Of a stretch of 64,000 bases of DNA, positions 27,885 through 58,250 are shown piece after piece (within the stretch, counting starts at the first letter, position 1; every line of letters begins with the position of its first letter). This stretch comes from a virus (taxonomy: Duplodnaviria; Caudoviricetes). The stretch lies in the IMG/VR virus record IMGVR_UViG_3300014656_003390, positions 1,780 to 65,779 of that record; one strand, given 5' to 3'. A program made the position numbers and the translations under genes. The notes under the pieces were generated by a model. It was not told where the DNA came from, did no database searches, and saw nothing but the letters and a program-made list of their open reading frames with translations.

Positions 27885-27898
27885 AATTAAATTACTCA

Positions 27899-30134: not shown

Positions 30135-30135
30135 T

Positions 30136-37099: not shown

Positions 37100-37100
37100 T

Positions 37101-40187: not shown

Positions 40188-40473
40188 TTTCTTTTTTCCA
40201 TACTTGTTTTACTTTTTTTACTAAATCTGTATCCCTTGAGTTATGCCATATATCTTTTGGAAAATATTTTCTTGTATCTATAACTTTGTCTGCCCATTTT
40301 CTAAGTATATCCATTGTTTCTTTTGTAGAATATTTTTCTCCAATAGCTATTGCTTCATATTTTATAACTAAATTTGGGTCATTTGTTCTTCCATTCAAAC
40401 CTTTTATAAATTGTGCCAGAGCTACACTTCTTATATTTCCCCCATCACATATACATAATACTTTTGTTGTCAT
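40177..40473 (-). CDS. Small LMW-PTP-like phosphatase
   Basis: VLCICDGGNIRS = CX5R(S) P-loop. Confidence 0.7.
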   Translation of the reverse strand: MTTKVLCICDGGNIRSVALAQFIKGLNGRTNDPNLVIKYEAIAIGEKYSTKETMDILRKWADKVIDTRKYFPKDIWHNSRDTDLVKKVKQVWKKENEN

Positions 40474-42589: not shown

Positions 42590-43755
42590 CTTGTAATCTC
42601 CACAATTAATTTATTCCAGTCAGCACCAACCTTATCCCAATTATATAATTTATTTACTTTATCTATTCCAATTTTTCCATAATGTTCTCTTAATTCAGGA
42701 TTATCATATAAGAGTGTTAATGCTTTTGCTCCACTTTCATCATCCATAATTGCTCGTTCTACATTCCAACTTCCTGTTAATTCTGTTGCTATTTTTATAG
42801 GAATACCACACACACCATCCTCAACTAATAATTCCTGTGTTGTAGCATAATCAGTTACTATAGGTGTAATGCCACAAGCCATTGCTTCAATAGTAGGAAT
42901 ACCAAATCCTTCTCCAGATGTTGTTAAGAAGAATACATCCATAACATTATAAACTTCATTCATTTGTTTATAATCGAAACCATTAAAGAATGTCATTCCA
43001 GAAAACATAACCCTATTATTTATTTTATATCTGTTAATCAATTGAATTATATCTATTGGTGCTGCTACATCATATGGGTCAGTATGTAAAAATAAAATAG
43101 CATCTGGATGGTCTTTAGCAAATAGAGCAAATGATTTAATTAATCTATCAGGCATCTTTCTTCCTTGATTTCTTTGAACAACACCAACAACAAACTTTCC
43201 CTGAAGTCCCCACTTTGCTTTTATCTTTTCTTTTTCTTCTTTTGGTAATGGAAAATAAATCTTTGTATCTATAGCATGTGGAATATATTTTGTATCAAAT
43301 CCATAACATTCTTTTACTTGCCTTTGTCCATGCCGAGCCATAGCAACAGGACAATTAACTTTCTTTAAAATATTTTCACATTGAAGAGGTAATCCTCCAC
43401 CACCATCGCTTGGGTAATAGAATATAGTTTTTGCAGGTGAAAAATCAATATTCATTAACCATGGCCAACACATAAAAGTATCAAGTAAAATTCCAAACAC
43501 ATCTATATTATATTTCTTTATGTATGGTTGAATTAAATTTTGAGCATATGGAACATGACTTCCACCTAATATAGTAAAATTAAATTTTGTTCCATCTTTA
43601 AGAATTAATCCAGGAGGTATTTCTTGACCAACATAATTATGGCCTAGAAAATAAACATTATGTCCTGCTTCTGCAAGCTTATTACATATATTCCAAGATA
43701 TTGTCGCATAACCAGTACAACAAAGAGGAGAGTCGCTTAACCAAAGAATGTTCAT
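42586..43755 (-). CDS. GT-B (GT4-like) glycosyltransferase
   Basis: IPHAID, RNQGRK, GEGFGIPTIEAMACG. Confidence 0.9.
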   Translation of the reverse strand: MNILWLSDSPLCCTGYATISWNICNKLAEAGHNVYFLGHNYVGQEIPPGLILKDGTKFNFTILGGSHVPYAQNLIQPYIKKYNIDVFGILLDTFMCWPWLMNIDFSPAKTIFYYPSDGGGGLPLQCENILKKVNCPVAMARHGQRQVKECYGFDTKYIPHAIDTKIYFPLPKEEKEKIKAKWGLQGKFVVGVVQRNQGRKMPDRLIKSFALFAKDHPDAILFLHTDPYDVAAPIDIIQLINRYKINNRVMFSGMTFFNGFDYKQMNEVYNVMDVFFLTTSGEGFGIPTIEAMACGITPIVTDYATTQELLVEDGVCGIPIKIATELTGSWNVERAIMDDESGAKALTLLYDNPELREHYGKIGIDKVNKLYNWDKVGADWNKLIVEITR

Positions 43756-44110: not shown

Positions 44111-45058
44111 TCACTTATATATATTATATTTACTCATAAATTTACAACCACTAATACAAAACCCATCTCTCTCTATGCTAACACATTTAGGAAATATTAA
44201 ATCATCTCTTTCAAATAAATATTGAAGTTGCTTTTCTTCAACTACACAATGTCTTAACTTCTTTTCAGATAAATGTTGTTTAAGTATTTCAAGGACCTCT
44301 TTTTTTGTATAACCCTTTTCCTTGAAATATAATATGATTAATCCTCGTTCTTTATAGTTCAAATCTTTTCGTTTCAACAATTCTTCTATACACAATGGCA
44401 ACTCTTTTATAACTATACTTTCTGAAGAACTAACATTAGAATTTATAAAAAGAGTTGGTTCTTCTTTTGTTTTGAAATCAAATTTTTTTAAATCAAACAT
44501 ATTATCTCCTCCAAGTAAAGAAGTATGTTTAATAAAATGTTGTTTTAATCCCCAATTCTTACAAAACAAATCTCCTTTATTAAATTCGCTTTCTGTTAAA
44601 GGAATACAAAATCTTTTTCTTTTAACATTAAAAGTATTTTCAATTCTATACAATCGAGCAATATCACCAACGACTGCCATATCGCATTTTAATTTTAATT
44701 CATCAATAAAATATTTTTGAGAGTTATAAAGACAACTCTTTGGATTTATTGGAACATAATCATTACAAAATAAAAATATATGATATCCTCCTCCACTCAT
44801 ATTAACCTTATGCCTCAATTTTTGTTTATTAAGTTCTTGATGAAGTTTGTTTGCTTCTTCCCAACTTCCTTCACCATCAAAGTCCCAAAATATTTTATCG
44901 ATGATAGCACTATTGTAATCTATTTTATTGTTTTCATTTAAATGTTCAAAGTCATATATTGTTCTATAAAGTGCTTTCTTTCCATTGTAAACATTTATAA
45001 ACTTAACCAATTCGCCTTTATCTTTACAAAGTTTACGAGGTAATCCTATTTCAAACAT
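44111..45058 (-). CDS. Archaeo-eukaryotic primase: PriS catalytic domain fused to a PriL-like Cys-rich C-terminal domain
   Basis: FWDFD, SGGGYH, DIARLYRIENTFN; C-terminal LPLCI...RHC...FPKC...FCISGC. Confidence 0.8.
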   Translation of the reverse strand: MFEIGLPRKLCKDKGELVKFINVYNGKKALYRTIYDFEHLNENNKIDYNSAIIDKIFWDFDGEGSWEEANKLHQELNKQKLRHKVNMSGGGYHIFLFCNDYVPINPKSCLYNSQKYFIDELKLKCDMAVVGDIARLYRIENTFNVKRKRFCIPLTESEFNKGDLFCKNWGLKQHFIKHTSLLGGDNMFDLKKFDFKTKEEPTLFINSNVSSSESIVIKELPLCIEELLKRKDLNYKERGLIILYFKEKGYTKKEVLEILKQHLSEKKLRHCVVEEKQLQYLFERDDLIFPKCVSIERDGFCISGCKFMSKYNIYK

Positions 45059-45785
45059 TAATATTATTACCTCCACATTTATCTTTAAATTGGCACCATT
45101 TACACCAAAAACTTGGTTTCATTTTATATTCACCACATTCCATTTCTAATCTAACTTTATTTATAATTTTTATAGCTTTTTGAATATACTTATCACTTAC
45201 TGATTCAAAGAAAAGTTTTCCTTTATCTAAAAAATAAATACCCCAATAACCTACTTCTACTCCATCAATTTTGTTTATTGTTTTATCATTATCGAAAAGT
45301 ATTTTATAAATCGCTAGTTCTAATCTATAATCATCGAGTTGATTTTGATTAAATTGCCCTGTCTTCCAATCAATAATTATTAATTTGTTATCTTTAGGAT
45401 TTAAATAAACTGCATCTATAATTCCTCTTAACATTAATTCAGGGCAACTAACTTTTAATTCTTGAAATACAGGATTAAAATACGCTGGATTAAACTCTCC
45501 AATTTCACTAACACAATCCTTTATTCTTTGATTTTCAAATTCAACAAACTTAACTAAGTCTTCATCTGGTTTCTTTAATTTAATTTCTTGCTTTCCATCG
45601 GCAGTTTTTGTGATATCAATATTCTTATAAAATCTTTCTACCTTTTTATGAATTAAACTTCCTCTATCTTGTGCAGGAGAAGCAATATTTTTAATTTCAT
45701 CTAAGTAAATATACTTCCATTTCATAGGACACTGTAAAAATGTCTTAATTTGACTTTTACTTAACCATCTTTTTTGTTGTTCCAT
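45051..45785 (-). CDS. PD-(D/E)XK RecB/Cas4-like exonuclease
   Basis: LSKSQIKTFLQCP, GIIDAV, IIDWKTG, CKWCQFKDKC. Confidence 0.85.
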   Translation of the reverse strand: MEQQKRWLSKSQIKTFLQCPMKWKYIYLDEIKNIASPAQDRGSLIHKKVERFYKNIDITKTADGKQEIKLKKPDEDLVKFVEFENQRIKDCVSEIGEFNPAYFNPVFQELKVSCPELMLRGIIDAVYLNPKDNKLIIIDWKTGQFNQNQLDDYRLELAIYKILFDNDKTINKIDGVEVGYWGIYFLDKGKLFFESVSDKYIQKAIKIINKVRLEMECGEYKMKPSFWCKWCQFKDKCGGNNINV

Positions 45786-45789
45786 ATTA

Positions 45790-46557
45790 TTATTTAAATA
45801 ATTTAGTATAAAGAGGACAAACATATTCTGTATTTTGTTTTCCTAACAATTTGTTTTCTTTTAGCTGCTGTTCATTCTCTCCTTTCATCATGCAATAATT
45901 TTGAACTTTACAAGGTGGACCAATCCATCTTAATATTCTTGGATCTATCTTGTTTGATATTTCTTCCATCATTAAATTAGCAACTTCTCTAAATTCTCCT
46001 TGTGTTTTTAAACATAATCTTTTGTTAAGCATTCCTATTAATGCTCGTAGTGAACAAGAAAATGTTACTGTAGAATAAATGTTCATTGGTAATAAGCCTC
46101 TTGCATCTTGAGTTGAAACATTTTCTTTCAATGCTTGTCTATATTCTTTTTGAATTTTAAGCATCTTGTTGTGATATCCAATATATTCTTTTGAATTTTT
46201 TTTAAAAGGATTAAAGTAATCCCCATTTTCTGCAAAGTTAGGAAGATTTATGCATCTTAAACTTTGGATTGAATATGAAAAACCAATTCTGTGTCTTGTT
46301 AATTGCTGTTGAAGTGCCCTTGATATATTTTCAAGTTTGAATGTTAATCCTACATATTCAAGAAATGTTGGCATTCCATCATTGAGTAAAACATCATTAA
46401 CATAATCATCAATACTTGAACCAAGCCATTTCTGTGGATCTTTTTTTAATTCTTCTAAAGTATCAGGAACAGGAGAGTGCATAACTCTTCTTGCCCAGCA
46501 CATAGTTTCTATGGGATCTGGTGTATAGTTAATAAGTTTTATATTTGGTTTTTTCAT
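45790..46557 (-). CDS. thyX: Flavin-dependent thymidylate synthase family protein
   Basis: RHRIGFSYSIQSLR, DARGLLP, NKRLC. Confidence 0.85.
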   Translation of the reverse strand: MKKPNIKLINYTPDPIETMCWARRVMHSPVPDTLEELKKDPQKWLGSSIDDYVNDVLLNDGMPTFLEYVGLTFKLENISRALQQQLTRHRIGFSYSIQSLRCINLPNFAENGDYFNPFKKNSKEYIGYHNKMLKIQKEYRQALKENVSTQDARGLLPMNIYSTVTFSCSLRALIGMLNKRLCLKTQGEFREVANLMMEEISNKIDPRILRWIGPPCKVQNYCMMKGENEQQLKENKLLGKQNTEYVCPLYTKLFK

Positions 46558-49500
46558 TTTATTATCTCTATGTCCATGAATGGTTCTTTATTCATTCTAT
46601 ATTTGACTTTTATTCCTGGGTATAATTTAACTAAAGATCTAAAACAAAGTCCTTCTATACCATTACTTAATTTTATTCTATAATATGATTTTTCGTTTTT
46701 ACTAACTGCTGGTGTCGACGATATTATTATAGTTTCTCCACTATTTAAGTTCTTCTTAAATTCATCAACATCATGCATTTTATCTGGAATTTGAAGTAAT
46801 TCACCATACATTTTTTGTCCTACTTTGTTGAATGTTCCATAAACAACAACTGGTTTTTTATCAAAGGAATAAATTAATTCTTTATATTTGTCATATGTAT
46901 GAGGTGATATTTGAATGGCAAGATTTCCTGTTCCATCATTTATATTAAGATATATCATATGAGGTTCAAAATTATGGATGTGCTTTTTATCCATTGGACG
47001 AATAAGTTTGTCTTTGTTTATGATTGCTGTAACAACTCCTCTAACATATCCTTGCTTTCCTCCATTGCTTTCTCCGAGATTTTCAATATTTATAAAATCA
47101 AAATCTCCAAAATTAAGTGATTTTAATATATTAATTTTTGGTCTTAGAGATGTATTCTCCATTATTAATTCTGCATATTCAATATCTGAATAATCAGCAA
47201 TTTCTTTTGTATAACAATTTCTTATTTCTTTTATGTCTCTTTCATAACATGCTCTTTTGTTAATTCCAAAATCTCTAAAACAATCAGCAATTACAAGTGA
47301 TTTAATTGTTGATGCTCCAATGTTACATCTTTTTGTAAAGTCTTCGAAATTTACAAATGGTTGTAGTTTAATTATTTTTTCTGCTGTTTTTTTACCAATT
47401 CCATTTATTGAATTAAAACCAGAATATATTGCTTTTTGTTTTGCAGAATAACTAAATTCAGAATAATTAATATTTGGATATTCAACTTTGACACCATTGT
47501 CTAAAGCATCATTTAAGTAATTTGAGATTTGTTCACTTTTGTTTTCAAATTTTAAAATTGCCTTATAAAATTCAAAAGGATAATATGTTTTAAGCCATGC
47601 ACACCAATAACTTATGATTGAATATTCAACAGCGTGTGCCTTATTGAATGAATATGAACCAAATGTTGATACAACATCATAAAGTTTTTCTGCATCTTTT
47701 TTTGGCATATTATGAAGTTTATTTGCATTTCTTACAAACTCTGCTCTCATTTCTTCAAATGCTTTTTTACCTTTGCTTTTAGTAATTACTTTTCTTGCCA
47801 TTTCTGCAGTTGCCCAAGACATTCCTCCAATTCTATTCATAATCTGCATTATTTGTTCTTGATATAAAATAATTCCTTTTGTATCTTTTGTTAATTCTTT
47901 AAGTAATGGATGTTCATAATTTGTTTCTGCTTTTCCTAAATGACGATTAACATATAACATTGTTTGTCCACTATGCAAAGCACCTGGTCTAAATAATGTT
48001 GTTGCATCATAAAGAGTTGAAAAATTATCTGTTTTTAATTCTTTAATGAGTTTGCTTAATCCTACAGTTTCAAATTGAAATATGCCAAGACTTTTACCAT
48101 TTGAAAAAACCTTTTTATATACTTCAGGATCTTCAAAATCACTTGGAAGTTTTTGTGGTACCATTTTCATACATTCCGAAATTACAGTTAGTGTTTTCAG
48201 TCCAAGAATGTCAAATTTTGTTAAACCAGCATCCTCAACTAATTGCTTTTCCCATTCAGTTACAATCTCTCCACCAATTTTATTTAAAGGTAAATATTCT
48301 GAAATTGGTTTGTCTGTTAATACCAAAGCAGCAGCATGAACACCTTTGTGTCTTATATGTCCTTCAAGTTTAATAGCTACATCAACAGCACTTGGATATT
48401 TTAATTTAAATGCTTTTGCTTCTTCAAATTCAGCAAAAGTATCAAGCAGTCCAAATGATGCTCTTGCATCTCCACCACTTCTTATTAAAACAAGATTGCA
48501 AATTTTTTCTATCTCACTTATTGATATGGAAAATATTCTTCCAACATCTCTTAATATTCCTTTTGGATGAAATCTTGAATATGTTGCAACTTTAGCAGAA
48601 TTATAAATTCCATATTTATTAATAAGATATTGAACAACTTCTTGTCTTCTATTGTCTTGATAGTCCATATCAACATCAGGTGCATCTCTTCTTATCTCAG
48701 AAATAAATCTATCAAATAATAAATTAAATTTAATTGGATCGCATTCTGTTATATTTAAAGCATAAGCTGCTAAACTTGCACCAACACTTCCTCTTCCTGG
48801 ACCAACCATTATTCCTTGCTGTTTTGCCCATCGTATCATGTCTTCTACAATTAGAAAATAATTTTCATATCCTTTTTCAAAAAATCTACTCATCTCTAAG
48901 TCAAGTTTTTCTTTTGCTACTCCTTCATATTTATATGGAGTATATTTTTCTAAACCAGTAACACACATTTCTTTAAGTTTAATTCGTGCTTCTTCTTTTG
49001 AAGAGAATAATCTTGGTAATGTTTCTTGATTGTTTGCTGTTTTAATTTCAAAATTTATTTTGCTCAAAACATTATAAGTATTATTTTTCAACTTTTCAAT
49101 AATTAATCCAAACCAATTATTCTCTTTATTTGTTAATATTCTTTGATTTATGTCTTCATCAGTCATTAAATAAAAACAATTGTCACCAAATCCTGCTTCA
49201 CCATATTTTTTTCTTAATCCAATTGCTTTAACTGCTTCATGATATTTTTTGTCTGATTGATAAGAATAGTGTGCATCTGTTGTTATAACAGATTTTATAT
49301 TATATTTTTGGTATAAAGCATAAGATTTTTTCATTATATTTTGATTGTTAATGCAAGTATGAAGTTGAAGCTCTCCATAAAAATCATCTTTCCAAGTTTC
49401 TTTATATCTTGCAATATACTTTTCAGCAACATCTTCTTTGTTCTCTTTTAATAAATTTGATATTGCACTATCAATACAGCCAGACAATATGATTAATCCT

Positions 49501-50699
49501 TCTGAATATTTAAATAAATTTTCAATTTTAACAATTGGTTTGTAATAAAAATCTTCACGAACAGCAATTTCATGTAGTTTCAATAAATTTTTATAACCAA
49601 TTTCATTTTTAACAAGCACTGTTTGGTGCATTCTTTTTTCACTTTCTGGAATTTGGATATATAGTTCACATCCAATAATTGGTTTAATTCCTCTTTCAAG
49701 TAATGCTTTTTGAAATTCCCAAACACCAGCTAGTGTTCCATGATCTGTTATAGCACATGCTTTAAATCCTTTTTTATATAAACTTTCAGCAATATATTTA
49801 CATGTTCCAAATCCATCACCAATTGAAAACTCTGAATGAACATGAAGAGGAACATAATTTTGCTGGACAATTTGTTCTTCTTGTTTCTCTTTTTCATATA
49901 TTTTAATCAAATCAGAAATTGGTTTATATTGCTCTGCAAAAATTCTTCTTATCTCTGAACTTTCTTTTTCTGAGTCATTTCCAATCATCTGAACAATTCT
50001 TGTATCAGCAACAATTTCTTTTGTTATGTAACCAACATACCAATACTCACCAGCCTTCATCTTACAACAAATGTATAAATCAATTTCAGGATGTTTTTTA
50101 TAATAACTTTCATATATCATCATGTCTTCATCAGACATTATATCTCTTGTATAAATCTTTACTTTTTTATTTCCCAAAAAACATTCATCTTTTTGATTTA
50201 TATCCTTAAAATAAACATCTGTTTGTTTACAAAAATTATGAAGACCAGCCAAAATTCCTGATATCATTTCTTTGTGTCCAAGATTTTCTGCTATCTGTTT
50301 GTTAATTATAAATTTTTCTTTTAGAGCTCTTGTTTCTTTAATTTTAAAAAATTGTAAATTCTGTAAATTGCTATCAACAACCATATAATAAAATTTGTTA
50401 TTTCTATAGATATCTCTTTTTGGAGTTGATAATAATTGCTCTTTTGAACACCATCCTGGTATTCTTGTTCTTGATGCTCCTGTTTTTACAAGAAGAAAAT
50501 TATCATATTTGTTAATAATACTTTCTGAAATTATTATGTCATCTGAATGATCGTAAGGATGATAATCAATAAACCATTTTTGATTATTAAATATAAATTC
50601 TTCTTTGCTTATTTTCTTGGTATTTATTTTGGTAATAAAATTATCAATAACTTGTTCTGTTGATTTTTCAGTCTCTTCAATTTGTTTTATAAATTCCAT
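46554..50699 (-). CDS. dnaE: Family C DNA polymerase (DnaE alpha) with ~280-aa N-terminal extension
   Basis: PHP LHVHSEFS.DG, PGRGSVGASL, PDVDMD, KFDILGL, FNKAHA, C-terminal OB fold. Confidence 0.95.
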   Translation of the reverse strand: MEFIKQIEETEKSTEQVIDNFITKINTKKISKEEFIFNNQKWFIDYHPYDHSDDIIISESIINKYDNFLLVKTGASRTRIPGWCSKEQLLSTPKRDIYRNNKFYYMVVDSNLQNLQFFKIKETRALKEKFIINKQIAENLGHKEMISGILAGLHNFCKQTDVYFKDINQKDECFLGNKKVKIYTRDIMSDEDMMIYESYYKKHPEIDLYICCKMKAGEYWYVGYITKEIVADTRIVQMIGNDSEKESSEIRRIFAEQYKPISDLIKIYEKEKQEEQIVQQNYVPLHVHSEFSIGDGFGTCKYIAESLYKKGFKACAITDHGTLAGVWEFQKALLERGIKPIIGCELYIQIPESEKRMHQTVLVKNEIGYKNLLKLHEIAVREDFYYKPIVKIENLFKYSEGLIILSGCIDSAISNLLKENKEDVAEKYIARYKETWKDDFYGELQLHTCINNQNIMKKSYALYQKYNIKSVITTDAHYSYQSDKKYHEAVKAIGLRKKYGEAGFGDNCFYLMTDEDINQRILTNKENNWFGLIIEKLKNNTYNVLSKINFEIKTANNQETLPRLFSSKEEARIKLKEMCVTGLEKYTPYKYEGVAKEKLDLEMSRFFEKGYENYFLIVEDMIRWAKQQGIMVGPGRGSVGASLAAYALNITECDPIKFNLLFDRFISEIRRDAPDVDMDYQDNRRQEVVQYLINKYGIYNSAKVATYSRFHPKGILRDVGRIFSISISEIEKICNLVLIRSGGDARASFGLLDTFAEFEEAKAFKLKYPSAVDVAIKLEGHIRHKGVHAAALVLTDKPISEYLPLNKIGGEIVTEWEKQLVEDAGLTKFDILGLKTLTVISECMKMVPQKLPSDFEDPEVYKKVFSNGKSLGIFQFETVGLSKLIKELKTDNFSTLYDATTLFRPGALHSGQTMLYVNRHLGKAETNYEHPLLKELTKDTKGIILYQEQIMQIMNRIGGMSWATAEMARKVITKSKGKKAFEEMRAEFVRNANKLHNMPKKDAEKLYDVVSTFGSYSFNKAHAVEYSIISYWCAWLKTYYPFEFYKAILKFENKSEQISNYLNDALDNGVKVEYPNINYSEFSYSAKQKAIYSGFNSINGIGKKTAEKIIKLQPFVNFEDFTKRCNIGASTIKSLVIADCFRDFGINKRACYERDIKEIRNCYTKEIADYSDIEYAELIMENTSLRPKINILKSLNFGDFDFINIENLGESNGGKQGYVRGVVTAIINKDKLIRPMDKKHIHNFEPHMIYLNINDGTGNLAIQISPHTYDKYKELIYSFDKKPVVVYGTFNKVGQKMYGELLQIPDKMHDVDEFKKNLNSGETIIISSTPAVSKNEKSYYRIKLSNGIEGLCFRSLVKLYPGIKVKYRMNKEPFMDIEIIK

Positions 50700-50944
50700 T
50701 ATTCAACTTCAGGAGTATTCTTTCTCCATCCTCCTTCTCCTGCTTTCCATGTCTTATATCTCTCACCATGTAGTTGAACCATAGATATTTTTCGTAGGAT
50801 CTCAAGCAAATCTTCTTCAGAATTGCACCATATTCCTTCGTCTTTGTAATTTACTGCCCAAGCAATTATGTTCTCTCCTTTCTTTTTTCCTTTGATTAAA
50901 GAAGTATGAACTCTTGCTCCAGCACATTCACTTATTTTTTTCAT
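50699..50944 (-). CDS. Hypothetical protein
   Basis: Preceded by TGAAAGGAGG. Confidence 0.6.
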   Translation of the reverse strand: MKKISECAGARVHTSLIKGKKKGENIIAWAVNYKDEGIWCNSEEDLLEILRKISMVQLHGERYKTWKAGEGGWRKNTPEVE

Positions 50945-51233
50945 TTTTATTTTTTCCTCCTTTCAATATAATTAATTCCATTATAGCATATATAGCAAGA
51001 TCCATCCAAGTATCAATTAAAGTTTCGTCTGGAAGATTTTGTTTATTCTCTCCTGAATAATATGTCTGAAGTCGTGCAATTTTTCTTCTTACTGAAAGCC
51101 ATCTTTCAAGTTCAGAGTATTCTCCTTCAAAATAATCATTGCCATAATGCTTATTTTTTGCTGAAAATTGACTTAATAATTCATTGCAGACTACAGCAAA
51201 TTCTTCATTCTTTTCCATAAATTTATCAGTCAT
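50928..51233 (-). CDS. DUF1599/nucleotide-modification-associated all-alpha domain
   Basis: KNKHYG...RKIARL...DTWMDLAIYAIM. Confidence 0.7.
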   Translation of the reverse strand: MTDKFMEKNEEFAVVCNELLSQFSAKNKHYGNDYFEGEYSELERWLSVRRKIARLQTYYSGENKQNLPDETLIDTWMDLAIYAIMELIILKGGKNKNEKNK

Positions 51234-52186
51234 ATTTTTATATCCTTTAATGTTTTAATTCTTACAATATTTTTGTGTTGAATATTTTGATTATAGGTCT
51301 TATCAATTAAGTAGACTTTATAACCTTTATTGGCGATTTTCAAAGCAATCTCAGCACAATCCTCTATCATGAAATTCATATTTGGAAATTTGTTTATAAT
51401 CTTCTCTTCTTTATTTTCATCAAAGATTATTGCATCACATAGAATATTCTTCTTTTTTAACCATTCAATTGTATCAGCAAATACTCTTGAATATTCTTTA
51501 TATGGACGAGCAGATAAAATGATTATTTTATATCCTTTCTCTTTAAGATTTTTTGTAAATTCATCAGGATTATTTATTGTTTTTATAAATCTTTTTTCTC
51601 CACTTTCTCTATACTCTCTTTTTAGCTGTTTTGCTCTTTCTTCACCAAGAACATCTGAAACATTTTTAAAAATATTGTATGTACCATCATCTTTTATTCT
51701 TTTTCCTGTTTTTTTAAATATGAAGTTGTAATAACTTTTTGGATAATCAGCAATGCATCCATCAAGGTCTAGACCAATAATTTTTTTGTCTTTAAGTAAA
51801 TTTAATTGCTTTTCTTGTTTATATCTTTGTTCAACAACTTCAGACTTTCTATTAAATTCAGAAATAAATTCTTTAGGAGACATATTCCAAAATTGAGCAA
51901 TACTTAACCAATATTTAAAAATGTCTATTATTTCATCTTTTAATCTGCTTTCTTTAATTGGATTATATTTATTGTATACTTTTTCTCTGTGCATCTTCCA
52001 ATTAATTTCATTGAGTAATTCTGTTGCTTCTGTTATTAAGTGCAGAATAAATTCTTTTGTTAATGCTTCTTTCTCTTCAATTGTATTTGCTTTATTCTTA
52101 AGAAGTTCATTAAAGTCTTTTTGCCTTTTCCAAATCTTATTTAATTCTTCCATTTTATTGTTTTTATTCCTCCATTTGTTATCCAA
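51230..52186 (-). CDS. Dimeric dUTPase/MazG-like pyrophosphatase fused to HAD 5'(3')-nucleotidase
   Basis: EATELL...WK...DEIID; GLDLDGCIAD; FMIED. Confidence 0.85.
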   Translation of the reverse strand: MDNKWRNKNNKMEELNKIWKRQKDFNELLKNKANTIEEKEALTKEFILHLITEATELLNEINWKMHREKVYNKYNPIKESRLKDEIIDIFKYWLSIAQFWNMSPKEFISEFNRKSEVVEQRYKQEKQLNLLKDKKIIGLDLDGCIADYPKSYYNFIFKKTGKRIKDDGTYNIFKNVSDVLGEERAKQLKREYRESGEKRFIKTINNPDEFTKNLKEKGYKIIILSARPYKEYSRVFADTIEWLKKKNILCDAIIFDENKEEKIINKFPNMNFMIEDCAEIALKIANKGYKVYLIDKTYNQNIQHKNIVRIKTLKDIKI

Positions 52187-52557
52187 TATTTTAAATCTTC
52201 TTTATTATAGTCTTCAAGATATATAATTTTTTTAATTCCTGCTTGAATACATAATTTATAACATATTTCACAAGGCAATAAAGTTGAATATAAAGTTGCT
52301 CCTTCTGCTTCTTTTCCTGCTTGAAGAAGAGCATTCATTTCAGCATGAAGAACTCTTATGCAATGATTGTCTTTCATAAGACAGCCAACATCAGTACAAT
52401 GTTCCATTCCTTTAGGTGCTCCATTGTAGCCAGAAGCAATTATTCTATTATTCTTTGTTATTATTGCACCAACTTGTTTTCTTGGACAAGATGCCTTTTT
52501 GCTTATAAGTTTTACAATTTCAATAAAATATTCATCCCAGCTTATTCTTTTTTGCAT
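52141..52557 (-). CDS. dCMP deaminase
   Basis: SGYNG, HAEMNA, PCEIC. Confidence 0.9.
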   Translation of the reverse strand: MQKRISWDEYFIEIVKLISKKASCPRKQVGAIITKNNRIIASGYNGAPKGMEHCTDVGCLMKDNHCIRVLHAEMNALLQAGKEAEGATLYSTLLPCEICYKLCIQAGIKKIIYLEDYNKEDLKYWITNGGIKTIKWKN

Positions 52558-53434
52558 ATTCAATTGCCTCTTTTATTACTTTTTCAGTTTTATATGCTCT
52601 ATTCCATGTACCATATCTTCCTGAAAATATAATATTTTTTATGCTAGGTATTTTTTTCAAAGTTATTATTTGAACATCTTTTAAAATTTGAGAATTAATA
52701 TAATTCATACCAAATTCTTTTCTACACTCTTTTTCTGTATGCTCTCCAAACCATTCTACAACAAGTCCTTTTTCTGTTTTTGTAATTCTATGGAATTTTT
52801 CATTTAAGCAATAAACAAAATTAAATTCTTTAATATCAAAAAAATTGTTCTGCAATAAAATATAAGTAATATCTTCTGATGCTAATTTTTCTTTTTTGAT
52901 TTCAGGAGAAGTTATTTTATAAAATGTGTTTAATGGTATGGTGTTTATAAGTTTGCTATAACAGAATGTATTGCTCTGATTTTTTAAAAAGAAACACTTA
53001 TATTTTAAATTAATTTTTGCTATCTCTCCTACGATTATTCTATCAAATAATTTTATTTTTAAAGCATGAATTATCTTGTCAAAATCTATATTGAAAACTT
53101 GCATCTCTTTCTTGTCTGAATTCATTAATGTTTTATCAGAAATATTTTTATTTGTTCCTCTACTTTTCTTAAAGTACTTTTTTTTAAAAGAATTATCTGG
53201 ATCAATAAATTGATTATCATAATATCCAACTTTAATTATTTTTTTATCTGTTATAATATTTAAGTCTTTTAATAATTTCTGTGTGTCTTTTGTAACTTCA
53301 AGATATCTAGGACCAAGCTGAAAAGAATAATTGTATTGTCCTCCAATTTCTGTGCTAATAATTTTATATTCTTTGTTATAAAATGCCCAAATAAGTCCTG
53401 CAATTCCACCACCTAAGATATAATTATTTTCCAT
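52532..53434 (-). CDS. FAD-dependent oxidoreductase (Glf/amine-oxidase-like fold)
   Basis: ILGGGIAGL dinucleotide motif; C-terminal GRYGTW. Confidence 0.75.
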   Translation of the reverse strand: MENNYILGGGIAGLIWAFYNKEYKIISTEIGGQYNYSFQLGPRYLEVTKDTQKLLKDLNIITDKKIIKVGYYDNQFIDPDNSFKKKYFKKSRGTNKNISDKTLMNSDKKEMQVFNIDFDKIIHALKIKLFDRIIVGEIAKINLKYKCFFLKNQSNTFCYSKLINTIPLNTFYKITSPEIKKEKLASEDITYILLQNNFFDIKEFNFVYCLNEKFHRITKTEKGLVVEWFGEHTEKECRKEFGMNYINSQILKDVQIITLKKIPSIKNIIFSGRYGTWNRAYKTEKVIKEAIEYAKKNKLG

Positions 53435-53435
53435 T

Positions 53436-53606
53436 TTATTGCTCTTTTATTTGTTTTTCTGTCTGGATTTTTCTTTCATTTAATTTTAGTAGTTTGTTTT
53501 GTACTACTGGACTATCTTTAAAGTTATATTTTAAATCCCATTCACAATTTTTAATTTCACTTTGTATTCTTTTTAATTTTAACTGCATTTCCTCTTTTAT
53601 TTCCAT
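53436..53606 (-). CDS. Small coiled-coil protein (56 aa)
   Basis: MEIKEEMQLKL...KQIKEQ fills the gap. Confidence 0.5.
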   Translation of the reverse strand: MEIKEEMQLKLKRIQSEIKNCEWDLKYNFKDSPVVQNKLLKLNERKIQTEKQIKEQ

Positions 53607-53609
53607 AAA

Positions 53610-54398
53610 TCATTTTAACATCTCCTTTAATTTGTCAATTGTAGGGCTTTCTATAATCTTTCCAATTAAATCTCCATTTTGACGACACTTCTCTATTTTA
53701 GCTTGGAATGTTATTCCTCTTGCTCCAAGGAATTTGATTTCATGATAAAGAACAATATCAACAAAAAATGGAATTTTCTTTTGGACTTCTGGTTTATAAC
53801 GACCAGTTGGTTGTCCTGCTCCAGCATAAATTTCTCCTTCTCGTGCTGTAAAAATGATATTACAATTTTTATTTATAAGTTTTAAAACATTTTTTCGCAT
53901 AAGTGAATTTGGAACACCCCAATCAAATTGTTGTTTGAAACGCTCTTCAATCGGAATTTTGAATACTTTTGTTTTAGCATAAGCTTGACACCAACTCCAG
54001 ATATCTGTCATAGAGTCAACAATTATTGTTCCTATCTGTTCATCTGGAAGTGAAGTTAATTGTCTAACTGCTTCTTGGAAATTTTCAAAATTTCTTACTT
54101 CATCTTTTTCATCTGTATCTTCTCCTGACATATCGCATATATTAATAACATTAGCTTCAGGAAACTTATTAGCAAGTGGTCCTGTTCCATTTTCAGTATC
54201 AATAACATAAATTGGTTCAGTTGAAGTAAGTGCAAAGTGAGTTTTGCCTGTACTAAAATTTCCATAACTGAGAATTTTTATTCCTCTACTTTGTTTTACA
54301 TCTTTTAATTTTTTAAATTCCATTTTTGCTTCTTGCTTTGCCTCTTGTTTTGCTTTTATTTCTTCTGGTTTAATATTTGCTTGTGTATTCCAACTCAT
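53610..54398 (-). CDS. AAA_24/Sak4-like ATPase (probable recombinase)
   Basis: YGNFSTGKT, VIDTE, IVDS, TARE. Confidence 0.75.
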   Translation of the reverse strand: MSWNTQANIKPEEIKAKQEAKQEAKMEFKKLKDVKQSRGIKILSYGNFSTGKTHFALTSTEPIYVIDTENGTGPLANKFPEANVINICDMSGEDTDEKDEVRNFENFQEAVRQLTSLPDEQIGTIIVDSMTDIWSWCQAYAKTKVFKIPIEERFKQQFDWGVPNSLMRKNVLKLINKNCNIIFTAREGEIYAGAGQPTGRYKPEVQKKIPFFVDIVLYHEIKFLGARGITFQAKIEKCRQNGDLIGKIIESPTIDKLKEMLK

Positions 54399-54411
54399 TT
54401 TCTTTTTCTCC

Positions 54412-54477
54412 TTTATTTTGTTTTTCGGCTCATGCCTCATCAGCAACCAGACTTTTACTGGTTGGAAACAAAATAAA
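54412..54477 (-). ncRNA. Type III hammerhead ribozyme
   Basis: 12-bp stem III, UUC cleavage triplet, 7-bp stem I, CUGAUGA, 3-bp stem II, GAAA; all core nucleotides present. Confidence 0.9.
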
Positions 54478-54509
54478 ATAACAATTTTATTAATCTTCTT
54501 TAATCTTCT

Positions 54510-54650
54510 TTAATCTTCTTGGTGTTCTAAACAACATTCGCTCTGTTTACTCTTAACTTCATCTTTTTCAATTGTATCTACACTTTCCAATATTTCATCA
54601 ACCTTAATTTCTATCTTTTCGAAATCTTGTATTGTTGTTTGTTTTTCCAT
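54510..54650 (-). CDS. Small acidic protein (46 aa)
   Basis: MEKQTTIQDF...EHQED; followed by AGAAGATTAA x3. Confidence 0.45.
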   Translation of the reverse strand: MEKQTTIQDFEKIEIKVDEILESVDTIEKDEVKSKQSECCLEHQED

Positions 54651-54651
54651 T

Positions 54652-55722
54652 TTATATATTTTCTTCTGTTATCTCTTCAACTTCAGGAAGTTCAATTTTG
54701 TATTTGGGAATTGCATAAATACCAAAAGTATTTATTGTTACATTACTAAGTTCATCAGTTAAATTTCCCATATCATCTCTCTTTTTTCCTTGAGATGTTC
54801 TTCCTACTACAAGCACTTTACTACCTTCTGCAAAATCTATATTTATTCTTGAAGGTATCCAACAAGTAATACCATTGTTTGCTTCTATATCTTCTAGAGC
54901 AAGTGTTTCGTCTTCTATATTCATAATTCTGCTACCAATACTTGTTGGTTCAAGTCTTAAACTACTAACACTGCCTTCAGTTATGACAAATCTATTGAAG
55001 TTATCTTTAGTTAGTAGATGATACTCTGCTAAATCTTTTATCTCAACAAAAACATTTGTTATTTTTAATAAAGTTTCAAATTCAGGTATTTTTAGTTCAT
55101 TATCAACATTAAATGTTGTAAATGACGATGGATTTAACACATAACTTGATGTATTTTCTTTTGGTGTTTTATCAATAGCCATAAATCTTACTGGCTGAAA
55201 TATTGGTAAGTTTTCATCCTTTGCTTTATCACCTGATAAGTTCATTGTAAAAACTTTTGGTATATCATTAACATTTTTTGAATTAATAGCAATACCTATA
55301 ATATTTCTTAAATAGTTATGCTCTGGTAATGGTTTACCATATGATGAATTTCTTCTTCCCCCAGCCCATTCTTTTCTTGTATCAAGAGGTATTCCTTGTT
55401 CATCAACAATTCCTTGAAGGATGGCTTGTTGTGGATCATTTTTGTATTTTTCTAAAGCATCACGTTTTTGTTTTGCTACTATATCAACACAATCACCCAT
55501 TCCAATTATAAATCCTTCAAACCCTGTTGCTGGACTTCTTAATTGTTTCTTATAAAGAAGTGCTAATCTACTAAGTGCTCTTTGGTTCTTATCTTCTTCT
55601 GATAAATCTTTGTGAATATCATTTTCTTCAGCTAGAAGAATTTGATAATCTTTTTCAATATCTTTTTGAGGCATGGAAAGTTTATCACTCCATTCTTTTA
55701 TAAGCTCGTTAAATTGTTTCAT
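54652..55722 (-). CDS. Probable single-stranded DNA-binding protein (RPA-like OB folds)
   Basis: Next to the recombinase; helical N-terminus, beta-rich OB-like C-domain (ITCWIP...KVLVVGR), acidic tail. Confidence 0.45.
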   Translation of the reverse strand: MKQFNELIKEWSDKLSMPQKDIEKDYQILLAEENDIHKDLSEEDKNQRALSRLALLYKKQLRSPATGFEGFIIGMGDCVDIVAKQKRDALEKYKNDPQQAILQGIVDEQGIPLDTRKEWAGGRRNSSYGKPLPEHNYLRNIIGIAINSKNVNDIPKVFTMNLSGDKAKDENLPIFQPVRFMAIDKTPKENTSSYVLNPSSFTTFNVDNELKIPEFETLLKITNVFVEIKDLAEYHLLTKDNFNRFVITEGSVSSLRLEPTSIGSRIMNIEDETLALEDIEANNGITCWIPSRINIDFAEGSKVLVVGRTSQGKKRDDMGNLTDELSNVTINTFGIYAIPKYKIELPEVEEITEENI

Positions 55723-55807
55723 TTTTTAACCTCCTTTCAACTATATTTTGGAACATAATAAAATGCATCATATCTTTTTTTTCAACCATAGAAGATATAA
55801 AAATCGG

Positions 55808-55882
55808 ATATTTAAATATATTATGATTTTAAATTTAATGGTTTTTATTATCTACAACCAAAATCATAATATATTTAAATAT
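55808..55882. promoter_or_regulatory. Divergent promoter pair forming a perfect 23-bp inverted repeat
   Basis: ATATTTAAATATATTATGATTTT (55808-55830) / AAAATCATAATATATTTAAATAT (55860-55882) at the strand switch. Confidence 0.75.
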
Positions 55883-55967
55883 TATTATATTTTTAACATT
55901 ATTATGTTATCAAAAGAGTGGATAGGTGGTTTTATTTCTGGAGAAGGATGGTTTAATTAGATAAATT

Positions 55968-56264
55968 ATGGCATACAAAATAAAACACAAATGCGATTTA
56001 TGTTCTAATAAAAGCAATAATACAGTTGTATATAAAGGAAAAGAACTTTGTAAAAGTTGTTATCGTAGAACAATGATAAAGTGTTTAAGTTTAAATAGTG
56101 TTCATAAAAGAAAAACAATTGAACAAGCATTAAATAAAATTTATGAAATTCGTGGATATGGAATAAAGAGAAATGGACGAGGATTTATAAGAGCTGTTTG
56201 TAGCTTTCCTGCTATATTAATAGGTCATAAAGTTAAATTAGTTTTGATTGATAATATTAAATAA
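55968..56264 (+). CDS. Zn-finger plus DUF2080-like small DNA-binding domain
   Basis: CDLC...CKSC; C-terminal FPAILIGHKVKLVLI. Confidence 0.5.
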   Translation: MAYKIKHKCDLCSNKSNNTVVYKGKELCKSCYRRTMIKCLSLNSVHKRKTIEQALNKIYEIRGYGIKRNGRGFIRAVCSFPAILIGHKVKLVLIDNIK

Positions 56265-56302
56265 GTTAAATAAGTTAAATAAGTTAAATAAGTTAAATAA
56301 GT
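56258..56302. repeat. 9-bp tandem repeat TAAATAAGT x5
   Basis: Five exact units. Confidence 0.95.
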
Positions 56303-56316
56303 TAAAACATATTAAA

Positions 56317-56646
56317 ATGGGATATATAAAATGGAGATGTACAAAATGTGGAGACATTATTATAAGTAATACTAATAGGCGACATCAAGCAGATTTTTGT
56401 AAATGTGGGCAAGCAATGTGTGATTCTGAAAACGATTATGTTAGGTGGGGTGGTAATGTAGAATATTTAAATAAATTTGATTATAATTTCTTTAATGAAT
56501 TAGTGTATTGTATGGATAAACAAGGATTTATAGCAATAGGAATTAAATGGAATGATGGACATTTTTGGATAACATTACAAGAAAGTATGTTTATAAGAAA
56601 ATTAGAAGACGAGATTTGTAAAAAGTTGAAAGGAGGAGATATATAA
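56317..56646 (+). CDS. Zn-ribbon protein
   Basis: RCTKCGDIIIS...FCKCG. Confidence 0.7.
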   Translation: MGYIKWRCTKCGDIIISNTNRRHQADFCKCGQAMCDSENDYVRWGGNVEYLNKFDYNFFNELVYCMDKQGFIAIGIKWNDGHFWITLQESMFIRKLEDEICKKLKGGDI

Positions 56647-56649
56647 AAA

Positions 56650-56832
56650 TTGGATATGGGAATTGAATTAGGATTTATAGGATTATTAACAATTATTTTA
56701 GTTTTTTTAAAGGCATTTAATATTATTGATTGGTCTTGGATTTGGGTATTGTCGCCATTATGGATTAGTGCATTAATTGGAATGTTAATTGTTATATTGC
56801 TTATTATAATTGGTTATTGTTGGTTGTTATAG
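56650..56832 (+). CDS. Small two-TM membrane protein
   Basis: IDWSWIWVLSPLWI. Confidence 0.7.
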   Translation: MDMGIELGFIGLLTIILVFLKAFNIIDWSWIWVLSPLWISALIGMLIVILLIIIGYCWLL

Positions 56833-56888
56833 TTGAAGTAATTGTTAATAAAAAGTAAAAAGGTTGATAGTAGACTTAATTAATGTTA

Positions 56889-56916
56889 GGTTAAAGGTTA
56901 AAGGTTAAAGGTTAAA
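56889..56916. repeat. 7-bp tandem repeat GGTTAAA x4
   Basis: Four exact units before the helicase ATG. Confidence 0.9.
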
Positions 56917-56927
56917 ATATTAAAAAA

Positions 56928-58250
56928 ATGATAAAAACTAATTTTGATGAATGGTATAAAACATTTGAAAAAGCATGGAATGTTAGAATGATTGAAAATG
57001 AACACTTGAAAACCATTTGTTTTTTAGAAATGTTGAGTTGTATTAATAGGGTGAGATATATTTATGGGGGGCAATATAAGACAACAAATATTAGTAGTTT
57101 TAAGGTTCAACAATCAGGAACAGGAAAAGGGGTAGCAGATAAAATTGTTGGAGATTGTTTAAGACATATGGGTTATAATGTTTGTAAGATTAATAATTTT
57201 ACTGAAGCTGCAATTATTGGTAGTTTAACAATAGATATGGTAGGAAAAGCTCATATAATTAAAGGAGCATTAGGTGAATATGATTTTATATGGATTGATG
57301 AAGCAAGAAATTTAATAGTTGGTAATAATTGGACACAAGGTTTATTAGAAGTAATTAATGGATATTTAGATGATGGAATGATTTTTAAGAGATTAGCAAA
57401 AGGAGAGATTAAGTATTGGAGTAATTGTAATTTTGGAACAGGAACTTTCTTTTTTGATAAATTAAAACCAACAATATTAGCAACTGGTATATTTCAAAGA
57501 ACACTTTTTAGTTATAAGGTTTTTGATAAAGAAGATATTTTAAGGATTAGTGGAAAATTTAATAATTTAGCCGAAAAGAGTTATATTGAAGATTTATTGC
57601 CAATATTAAATAATTTAAAAAAGTTAAAAGAACAACTAAGTTTTGAAAAATATAACATAAGTAAGAATAAGGACCATCCAAATTATGTCATTAGAATGAA
57701 GATAGAAGCAAGTAAATATTTAGGTGAAAAAATTGATAAATATTTTAATGAAGAAATTTTTGAAAAAGTTAAGGACAAAAGATTGAATGATATATTAACA
57801 AGTTTTTTGATAAGAAGTAAAGAAATGGGTCATAGAATTATGTGTATTTACGCAGTTTGGAACAATAAGGATGTTATAGATGAAGAATGTGCTGAAGTAG
57901 TGTATCCTATAATTAAAGACCAATTAAGTTTTGTTCTTGAATTTGTAAGTGATATTTTTGAAGGAACTGGATTTGATAGTGATGATTTAGTTAAGGAAGA
58001 GTTAAAGAAGAAGAAGGTTAAGCAAACAGAATTAGCTTTGTTAAAGTTGATTAAAGACCATCCTGGATTGACGAAGTTGGAGATTAGAGAGTTGATTAAG
58101 AAGAATAAAGAGTTATTTAGTTTAGGAGAAAGTCAAATTTTTAATAAGATTTTGCCATATCTTATAGAAAGTTCAGGAAAGGTTAGATTAGAACAAGGAG
58201 ATACGGCAGCAGAAAAGAAGATTTTTTTAGTTGAAATTAAAACAAAATAA
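56928..58250 (+). CDS. AAA+ ATPase, probable MCM-like replicative helicase with C-terminal wHTH
   Basis: QSGTGKG Walker A, IIKGALG..FIWIDE Walker B, GIFQR Arg finger, C-terminal HPGLTKLEI. Confidence 0.55.
   Translation: MIKTNFDEWYKTFEKAWNVRMIENEHLKTICFLEMLSCINRVRYIYGGQYKTTNISSFKVQQSGTGKGVADKIVGDCLRHMGYNVCKINNFTEAAIIGSLTIDMVGKAHIIKGALGEYDFIWIDEARNLIVGNNWTQGLLEVINGYLDDGMIFKRLAKGEIKYWSNCNFGTGTFFFDKLKPTILATGIFQRTLFSYKVFDKEDILRISGKFNNLAEKSYIEDLLPILNNLKKLKEQLSFEKYNISKNKDHPNYVIRMKIEASKYLGEKIDKYFNEEIFEKVKDKRLNDILTSFLIRSKEMGHRIMCIYAVWNNKDVIDEECAEVVYPIIKDQLSFVLEFVSDIFEGTGFDSDDLVKEELKKKKVKQTELALLKLIKDHPGLTKLEIRELIKKNKELFSLGESQIFNKILPYLIESSGKVRLEQGDTAAEKKIFLVEIKTK

Follow-up and report, generated by a model that had tools for sequence, protein, structure and literature searches.

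Family C DNA polymerases are a textbook marker of bacterial replication, and a gene for such an enzyme (DnaE) in a tailed virus that seems to infect an archaeon raises the question of where this polymerase came from and with which partners it works. The locus in question occupies positions 44111-58250 of a 64,000-nucleotide stretch of virus DNA, here called the window, which corresponds to bases 1780-65779 of a single 65,779-bp IMG/VR record (IMGVR_UViG_3300014656_003390) and has a GC content of ca. 28%; window coordinates are used unless stated otherwise. The encoded structural set consists of a large terminase, a portal-MuF fusion, an HK97-type capsid protein and a tail tube. Near-identical DNA is present in groundwater metagenomes from several studies, and a megablast search with the 14-kb replication block against 50,697 phage records gave no match. 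The original prediction described this block as a cross-domain hybrid replisome, in which a full bacterial-type DnaE is combined with an archaeal-type AEP (archaeo-eukaryotic primase), a probable MCM-like ATPase and an RPA-like protein, with no DnaG, DnaB or clamp. The gene set is indeed as described, but tailed viruses commonly mix parts in this way (Kazlauskas 2016, PMC4889955). The most informative point, and our main new result, is that sister viruses carry a family B polymerase (PolB) and PCNA in the very slot that is occupied by DnaE here.

The replication backbone of the virus runs in the order OB-fold protein, Sak4-like ATPase, polymerase cassette, nuclease, primase and divergent MCM-like operon (Table 1), and the variable cassette at ca. 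45825-53435, composed of DnaE and thymidylate genes, would sit in a hot-swap slot of this backbone. Four sister contigs were examined for the content of the slot. The closest relative by primase, L004 (ENA ERZ27245387 k141_1491018, 65,171 bp; AEP 64% identical), shares in the same order Sak4 (87%), a glycosyltransferase (82%) and the nuclease (58%); in this contig a PolB lies between Sak4 and the nuclease, accompanied by genes of the radical-SAM, amino-acid:DNA-transferase (PF18724, ADDT) and acetyltransferase types. The contig L020/L026 (ERZ27247350 k141_422317, 68,067 bp) reproduces the whole divergent layout: the OB protein (59% identity) and Sak4 (68%) genes point leftward, two small genes and the same MCM-like gene (in a 69%-identity cluster) point rightward and are followed by a JAB-domain gene, and the slot holds PCNA, methyltransferases and a PolB different from that of L004. 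L021 and L003 also contain PolB and PCNA, which brings the number of sisters with PCNA to three of the four examined; the Heimdallarchaeaceae-binned JBQSKD010000196.1 is one of the PolB-type sisters. Overall, the sisters are 50-58% identical to this virus in the PD-(D/E)XK nuclease and 49-64% in the AEP, with a GC content of 28% and 31% in the two that were sampled. Their PolBs fall into three groups that are 24-35% identical to each other, so that the same slot would have received PolBs of three unrelated lineages, usually along with PCNA. As can be seen, the sisters have in common with this virus the backbone, the gene order, an ~18-kb block of sugar genes and the genome size, and differ in having PolB, PCNA (3/4) and DNA-modification genes instead of DnaE, ThyX, dCMP deaminase and nucleotidase. 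Since the backbone is the same and the polymerase is not, the replicative polymerase appears to have been exchanged in situ, while helicase, primase and single-strand DNA-binding protein (SSB) were retained.

In the AEP tree, this virus is nested (support 99) with PolB types that include L004, and the DnaE types PhiF1, L006 and L007 lie deeper; the tree requires at least two polymerase changes. Parts other than the polymerase may move too. The DnaE-type relative L022, whose DnaE is 59% identical to that of this virus and has the same ThyX, dCMP deaminase and nucleotidase neighbours, carries a different primase (PF09250), and the primase is therefore exchangeable as well. In relatives, a large number of DNA-modification genes lie in the polymerase slot (L003 459-3584; L004 4455-5462; L021 1-5407), among them those for QueC, GTP cyclohydrolase I, PTPS and a TGT-like protein (7-deazaguanine pathway), for ADDT (PF18724), and for many N4/N6 and C5 methyltransferases.

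The prediction of a full DnaE at this place was borne out. Matches to four Pfam profiles, PHP (PF02811, E 3e-40), DNA_pol3_alpha (PF07733, 1e-71), the finger domain (PF17657, 2e-37) and HHH_6 (PF14579, 4e-16), each span the full length of the profile, and the DnaE-type domain set is complete. The protein consists of 105 N-terminal residues without assignment, a conserved 180-aa linker, the PHP domain, palm/thumb, fingers, a helix-hairpin-helix (HhH) domain, an OB-like region and a clade-specific C-terminal domain. PF01336 (OB) is detected in cellular matches and not in this DnaE, in which one stretch aligns with the cellular OB region. The nearest homologues are 40-65% identical and are all found on contigs of no more than ~90 kb; many of them have an N-terminal uracil-DNA glycosylase (UDG) domain. 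Inteins, at least one per protein, or a division between a UDG/PHP gene and a separate polymerase gene (about 815-845 aa) occur in some of these homologues and in many proteins of the DnaE clade, as in region L006 4620-8566. A UDG domain in the N-terminus of the DnaE studied here was considered and rejected, as there is no Pfam match there: by BLAST, residues 106-285 correspond to the linker of a relative with UDG, and where this relative has its UDG the protein has an unrelated segment, residues 1-105.

The palm catalytic aspartates D675, D677 and D830 correspond to E. coli D401, D403 and D555 and are invariant in all 20 aligned sequences. The PHP metal ligands are kept at nine positions out of nine (H286, H288, D295, H320, E345, H358, C408, D475 and H477), as compared to four in E. 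coli. Searches of all 65,779 bp of the record with Pfam profiles in six frames revealed no DnaQ/RNase_T exonuclease. Because all nine ligands are intact and no DnaQ-type exonuclease is encoded, proofreading in cis by the PHP domain is the natural inference, and with its catalytic and metal-binding residues in place the enzyme may well proofread its own synthesis. DnaE1 of Mycobacterium tuberculosis and Thermus is said, in the work of Rock and colleagues from 2015 and related studies, to proofread itself with an active PHP exonuclease. At the level of sequence, the likeness lies in the nine PHP ligands and the lack of an epsilon/DnaQ partner; DnaE1 reportedly still binds the beta clamp, whereas the DnaE studied here is without the motif segment.

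The view of this DnaE as a bacterial part was not supported by its phylogeny. In trees built with FastTree and IQ-TREE, viral DnaEs form a clade (support 100) apart from the sampled cellular DnaEs, and this virus-only clade includes enzymes of bacterial phages. Phages of Geobacillus/Pectobacterium and of Streptomyces branch first within it, and the DnaE of this virus groups with those from a Nanoarchaeota bin, from a Methanobacteriaceae bin and from PhiF1 (support 97 with FastTree and 92 with IQ-TREE). Since DnaE sits in a virus-only lineage, away from the sampled cellular enzymes, a viral source is likelier than direct capture from a bacterium. The phage enzymes, those of Streptomyces phage Forrest (gp62), Geobacillus phage GBK1 (gp29) and Pectobacterium phage PcaP2EGY (ORF44), belong to the common super-clade and show 29-36% identity; they differ in serving bacterial hosts and in having no N-terminal 281-aa extension. 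GBK1 resembles our virus in that a PD-(D/E)XK gene lies directly downstream of DnaE, while in the Streptomyces phage DnaE is paired with an annotated "DNA primase" and a phage SSB. The claim that DnaE is atypical for viruses of archaea, which typically use PolB, was overstated: ORF57/58 of PhiF1 are annotated as DnaE, and Pol III subunits are noted in passing for six viruses of DPANN archaea (PMC12647753). DnaE in archaeal viruses is thus already known, in few cases and only as annotations, and in the literature that was searched we came across no study devoted to DnaE in viruses of Asgard or other archaea.

As for the primase, its identification as AEP rather than DnaG was upheld. The translation contains the motifs FWDFDGEG (DxD) and SGGGYHIF (sGxGxH) and the motif III aspartate D132; among 45 AEP homologues, D65 and D67 are invariant, and H99 and D132 are nearly so. 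PF04104 (PriL) is found in 19 of the 45 family members (best E 2e-7), AEP-TOTE (PF22548) in 15 and PF01896 in six; on the AEP of this virus PF04104 scores 21.8 bits against a cut-off of 22.4. The family consensus has a cysteine opposite each of the four cysteines of PriL of Sulfolobus (S. solfataricus; 5of3_B, E 0.018), and the C-terminal domain with its conserved Cys/His residues is a putative site of an Fe-S cluster. Judged by these motifs, the primase is a single-chain AEP of PriS-PriL type. PMC3973330 describes PolpTN2 of the Thermococcus plasmid pTN2 as a PriS-like AEP domain and a PriL-like C-terminal domain in one polypeptide. The two proteins are likened by this domain make-up; PolpTN2 is plasmid-borne and much larger, and the four-cysteine pattern of the viral AEP follows cellular PriL. 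The six-frame searches gave no match to DNAG_N, DnaB_C or DNA_pol_B, in agreement with the predicted lack of DnaG and DnaB.

The predicted MCM-like ATPase has no Pfam or PHROG match, sequence searches of the PDB with the protein and with its profile gave only noise, and neither a tblastn search of phage records nor a scan of IMG/VR by peptide patterns found a relative. Its AlphaFold model (pLDDT 86.8) nevertheless yielded only MCM chains among the 40 Foldseek matches listed (down to rank 49), with E values from 3e-12 to 5e-10 and a TM score of up to 0.59, and the prediction is strengthened to this extent. Invariant in the family are G64, G66 and K67 (Walker A), D124 and E125 (Walker B), R191 and R296; R191, located in a "QRT" stretch, aligns locally opposite the arginine finger in the "SRF" of MCM. 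There is no MCM N-terminal domain with its helical, zinc and OB subdomains, as the strands of the ATPase core start around residue 43 of 440 with two helices ahead of them. The model supports a helicase with a predicted archaeo-eukaryotic MCM fold, not DnaB.

The protein predicted to be RPA-like is modelled with a tandem OB fold, which does not tie it to RPA in particular. The model (pLDDT 95.6) has a helical head and two OB barrels, and Foldseek matched it to Thermus SSB, RPA70, CST, HIN and Pyrococcus abyssi RPA with E values from 7e-5 to 2e-3. VIA-align Z scores were tied between MCM N-terminal domains (12.2), anticodon domains of AsnRS/AspRS (11.7) and RPA (11.6 to M. maripaludis RPA, over 87 of 91 residues). 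No relevant Pfam match was found for the protein and 64 members of its family, the sole match being ChaB in one member, and the protein itself had no PHROG match and no tblastn match in the 50,697 phage records; PDB sequence searches with the protein and its profile gave only noise. The family, which comprises 603 clusters and has no Pfam model, includes PhiF1 ORF61 (family HMM, 2e-13) and proteins of L006, L020 and L022. By its modelled fold, the protein would represent a new tandem-OB family that is not demonstrably RPA, to which "RPA-like" applies only in the generic sense of an OB fold.

The top Z score raised the idea that the OB protein is the detached N-terminal domain of the MCM-like ATPase. 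It was rejected as the main reading because the score is tied with those of RPA and tRNA-synthetase OB folds, because the OB family is present in PhiF1, which has no MCM-like gene, and because the OB gene is always paired with the gene of the Sak4-like ATPase. The latter is a backbone gene with 67-87% identity in L004, L020 and L022, and its AAA_24 family also adjoins the OB gene in PhiF1 and L006. This pairing fits a cognate pair of SSB and annealase.

The host is most probably an archaeon, a judgement drawn from relatives of the virus and based on six independent lines of evidence. The module has a single cultured relative, PhiF1 (GenBank MK994522), a virus of Methanothermobacter that is listed as Methanobacterium virus PhiF1. 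Its ORF61-ORF54 block has the same order: OB protein (ORF61), AAA_24 (ORF60), thymidylate synthase, DnaE (ORF58/57, 32-35% identity), PD-(D/E)XK nuclease (ORF56), AEP (ORF55, 30% identity over the full length, E 1e-48) and, in addition, an ERCC4 nuclease. PhiF1 differs in that its DnaE is split into two ORFs with an N-terminal UDG, whereas here it is one ORF without UDG; in lacking the MCM-like gene; in having a methanogen-type ThyA-like enzyme instead of ThyX; and in its GC content (45% versus 28%), and the structural genes of the two viruses are barely related. The large terminase (TerL) has its best match in Halogranum tailed virus 1 (HGTV-1; 3e-42), while the best bacterial phage scores 2e-15. 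In a scan of one genome per GTDB species, the AEP family was found in ten bins, of which eight are archaeal (Methanobacteriaceae, Nanoarchaeota, Woesearchaeota, two Bathyarchaeia, Archaeoglobi and two Methanoperedens), and the DnaE-nuclease-AEP block is also present on the Methanobacteriaceae- and Nanoarchaeota-bin contigs. Homologues bear the NCBI names Heimdallarchaeaceae and Woesearchaeota. Sister viruses whose backbone proteins are 50-87% identical encode PCNA above the Pfam cut-off, and one of them, L003, also ribosomal protein S27e. The major capsid protein and portal gave only weak or partial matches to bacterial phages when compared with phage records and are uninformative as to the host; the tally of the OB family, with none in 401 genomes of the phylum of the Nanoarchaeota bin and one (the centre itself) in 401 of the phylum of the Bacillota bin, does not discriminate either. 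DPANN archaea would be a reasonable guess for low-GC groundwater, and no more than a guess.

An archaeal host would leave DnaE either to work without a beta clamp or to have adapted to PCNA, as the original prediction pointed out. In cellular DnaEs, the segment after HhH carries the beta-clamp motif (QISLF, QLNLL or QPSLL); this segment is deleted here and in the 12 closest relatives. No match to a clamp-binding pattern of the QL[SD]LF type was found in this DnaE, and no PCNA-interacting (PIP) box, canonical or relaxed, was found in it or at the termini of any replication protein. PCNA_N and DNA_pol3_beta were not detected by the six-frame searches, which agrees with the predicted lack of a clamp, and a hidden Markov model (HMM) built from the PCNA of relatives had no match in this genome. 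Between the two options, the scans for PIP and QL(S/D)LF sequences thus favour the first: a DnaE with no recognisable clamp-binding motif in a virus that seems to encode no clamp is the better-supported reading, though absent motifs leave room for a non-canonical interface. The enzyme would then probably work without a sliding clamp, by a judgement that is close to evenly balanced, and this independence is the weakest step of the explanation that we propose.

In our proposal, which we consider rather likely, the locus is the replication module of an uncultured tailed virus of ~66 kb from groundwater, with a likely archaeal host, in which the polymerase was hot-swapped. The MCM-fold AAA+ protein would unwind DNA, possibly starting from the AT-rich repeat region beside its gene, and the PriS-PriL-type AEP, with its conserved motifs, would lay primers. 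DnaE is expected to extend these and to proofread with its PHP domain, while the virus-specific tandem-OB protein would coat single-stranded DNA and act in a pair with the Sak4-like annealase. The PD-(D/E)XK nuclease may serve in recombination-dependent steps or in end processing, and dTMP could be supplied by ThyX, dCMP deaminase and the dUTPase-like/nucleotidase fusion. A more general statement, that one lineage of archaeal tailed viruses treats its replicative polymerase as a plug-in part and runs a single helicase-primase-SSB backbone either with PolB and PCNA or with a phage-derived, PHP-proofreading, clamp-free DnaE, is put forward tentatively, as something that we would not yet expect to hold in full. 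If it were true, the virus would be a natural demonstration that a "bacterial" replicase can act as the sole replicase of an archaeal cell's virus and can functionally displace PolB and PCNA together.

A number of points weigh against this proposal. The MCM assignment is by predicted fold only: the six-frame search of the record with PF00493 was empty, and an hhalign comparison with Methanobacteriaceae MCM gave a probability of 0.5%. Likewise, the OB protein is taken to bind single-stranded DNA only on account of its fold. How many polymerase swaps took place, and in which direction, depends on trees from short searches. Clamp independence rests solely on the absence of recognisable motifs, and non-canonical binding would escape detection; moreover, the record, which is classed as "linear" and has a CheckV completeness estimate of 46%, may be incomplete, in which case a clamp gene could lie off the contig. 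Four related contigs of 63-68 kb suggest that the record is near full size; no exact terminal repeat was found in it. With respect to the host, PCNA and S27e belong to relatives and not to this genome, two of the AEP bins are bacterial (Bacillota and Chlorobiaceae), one DnaE sub-clade within the group to which this DnaE belongs is labelled Proteobacteria, and bin membership of viral contigs is weak evidence. No direct host link is available for this virus, as no integrated copy was identified and a tRNA scan of the record was empty.

Would a bacterial host, for example one of the low-GC groundwater Patescibacteria or Bacillota, account for the same observations? The module would then be an ordinary phage replisome that mixes DnaE, AEP and an AAA+ helicase, in line with the survey of Kazlauskas 2016 (PMC4889955), in which family C polymerases were found only in bacteriophages and bacterial and archaeo-eukaryotic replication parts were usually mixed in phages. 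The two bacterial AEP bins, the DnaE-PD-(D/E)XK pair of Geobacillus phage GBK1, the nesting of the DnaE clade among DnaEs of bacterial phages and the strong GGAGG-type ribosome-binding sites, compatible with bacteria as well as archaea, all go with this explanation. We nevertheless hold it to be unlikely: the one relative of the module that is in culture has a methanogen as its host, TerL matches a haloarchaeal virus better than it does any phage, by 27 orders of magnitude, eight of the ten bins are archaeal though archaea are a small minority of GTDB species, the sisters encode PCNA and S27e, which are archaeal/eukaryotic genes, and Patescibacteria are absent among the ten AEP bins listed. 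The balance of evidence hence favours an archaeal host, the case that the original prediction had considered, with the proviso that the evidence comes from relatives rather than from this virus.

The two remaining explanations concern what DnaE does in the host. The negative searches for PIP boxes, for PCNA and for the beta clamp, and the deletion of the segment that bears the clamp motif in cellular DnaE, argue against an enzyme that depends on a clamp as the PolB sisters would, be it host PCNA, contacted by way of a non-canonical or structural interface, or a processivity factor of the virus that has escaped recognition. Such dependence is doubtful, yet it deserves attention, as the sisters invest in their own PCNA, so that processive synthesis matters in the lineage; residues 1-281 and the conserved clade-specific C-terminal domain could be docking modules, and several ORFs, such as 60194-61567, have no assigned function. 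The fusion of relatives of this DnaE to the UDG repair domain might, on the other hand, point to an accessory or repair polymerase, with the bulk of replication left to PolB/PolD of the host, which the viral MCM-like protein and primase would recruit. This we find very improbable for a polymerase that is the only one in the record, occupies exactly the slot of the only polymerase (PolB) of the sisters, is full-length with catalytic and proofreading sites intact and travels with genes of dNTP supply.

An exchange of this sort has a parallel. Yutin and colleagues reportedly observed in 2021 that crAss-like phages have PolA or PolB at the same locus of collinear related genomes. Those are said to be phages of Bacteroidota that alternate between PolA and PolB, whereas here the alternatives are PolB with PCNA and DnaE, the clamp is lost or gained along with the polymerase, and the viruses are probably archaeal. 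What is new is a DnaE that is unsplit and has neither UDG nor clamp motif, from a groundwater lineage distinct from those known, the exchange of DnaE against PolB and PCNA on one shared helicase-primase-SSB backbone, and two unannotated families worth defining, the tandem-OB proteins and the MCM-fold ATPases without N-domain. The paired sister genomes make it testable whether non-homologous bacterial and archaeal replicases are interchangeable, and what must change around them.

Table 1. Features of the replication block and its immediate surroundings, in window coordinates
Position	Strand	Feature	Basis and remarks
44111-45076	-	AEP primase, PriS-like catalytic domain and PriL-C-terminal-like domain	motifs, family profile
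45051-45824	-	PD-(D/E)XK (Cas4/RecB-like) nuclease	PF12705 E 1e-26; homologous to PhiF1 ORF56
45790-46557	-	ThyX flavin-dependent thymidylate synthase, part of DnaE cassette	PF02511 E 2e-34; same position in DnaE-type relative L022
46554-50699	-	Family C DNA polymerase (DnaE)	1381 aa, single ORF, without inteins
50699-51233	-	Two small ORFs, of 81 and 101 aa, separating DnaE from nucleotidase gene	
51230-52186	-	Fusion of dimeric-dUTPase/MazG-like and 5'-deoxynucleotidase (NT5C/HAD) domains	PF08761 E 1e-5, PF06941 E 7e-6; homologue in L022
52141-52563	-	dCMP deaminase	PF00383 E 1e-24; homologues in L022
52532-53434	-	300-aa protein with N-terminal GxGxxG dinucleotide-binding motif	no Pfam or PHROG match
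53610-54446	-	Sak4-like RecA-fold ATPase (AAA_24), putative single-strand annealing protein	PF13479 E 1e-19, phrog_124 E 5e-27
54652-55722	-	Tandem-OB-fold protein with N-terminal helical domain, putative virus-type SSB	356 aa
55968-56646	+	Two small Cys-rich (zinc-ribbon-like) proteins, head of rightward operon	second: DUF7695, PF24749 E 3e-7
56928-58250	+	MCM-fold AAA+ ATPase with C-terminal winged-helix-like domain, putative replicative helicase or initiator	440 aa
58251-58722		470-bp AT-rich non-coding region directly after MCM-like gene	many direct and inverted TTTAAATATATT-type repeats

The other genes of the block are listed in Table 1. The PD-(D/E)XK gene lies between polymerase and primase in all relatives, being directly downstream of the polymerase in most of them and separated from it by ThyX here; it adjoins the polymerase in L003, L004, L006, L007, L020, L021 and L022 as well as in Geobacillus phage GBK1. 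The second of the small ORFs next to DnaE shows a weak match to DUF1599 (nucleotide-modification-associated; PF07659, E 0.004), which is below the cut-off. A 300-aa gene without Pfam match adjoins the dCMP deaminase gene in L022 too and is likened to that of our virus by size only; the protein appears to travel with the DnaE cassette.

Two small ORFs are present in L026 at the same position as the Cys-rich pair at the head of the MCM-like operon. Five tandem 9-nt units (TAAGTTAAA) at 56244-56306 lie at the start of the second ORF of this pair (56248-56646), where they read LNKLNKLNK...; instead of coding for protein, they may form a repeat of regulatory or iteron-like character. The AT-rich region that follows the MCM-like gene is, by its repeats, a candidate replication origin or a cluster of promoters resembling TATA boxes. 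Further downstream, a Prok-JAB domain protein is encoded at 61464-62468; the PolB-type relative (L026 11021-12944) has a ThiF/E1-like gene after its JAB gene, a hint of a ubiquitin-like modification module.

At the left end of the window (1-109; the gene is at 1445-1888 of the record) lies a gene for an ERCC4-type nuclease, a homologue of PhiF1 ORF54. This gene comes after the primase in PhiF1, L006 and L008; here 43 kb separate the two, and the terminase region is shortly downstream of the nuclease gene. The portal-MuF fusion (966 aa, 4147-7047) joins a portal and a Mu-F-like head-morphogenesis domain to a weak C-terminal match to ART-PolyVal (ADP-ribosyltransferase, E 0.001). A transglutaminase-core cysteine-protease-like protein (25102-25779; PF01841, E 7e-10) has conserved counterparts in relatives. 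As a transglutaminase-like fold is also that of the pseudomurein endoisopeptidases of methanogen viruses, this protein is a candidate lysis enzyme.

More than a quarter of the genome is taken up by a minus-strand block of ~18 kb (25772-43755) with genes of sugar-nucleotide and glycan biosynthesis, which largely recurs in the relatives examined, regardless of the type of polymerase. It encodes several GT1/GT2 glycosyltransferases, epimerase/dehydratases, UDP-glucose dehydrogenase and two B12-binding radical-SAM enzymes, as well as a split transketolase, E1-type thiamine pyrophosphate (TPP) enzymes, a GHMP kinase, a cytidylyltransferase homologue and methyltransferases.

Finally, a run of small, apparently paralogous genes is found at 62846-63906. 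Each of them ends in a conserved 33-nt element (AGAATTAAAGCAG..AATTCAAGGGGTGG...), which gives the next gene a strong GGGGTG/GGAGG ribosome-binding site. Related repeats of 40-60 nt are also present in the first 330 bases of the record, and because of this recurrence the two ends of the contig probably adjoin.

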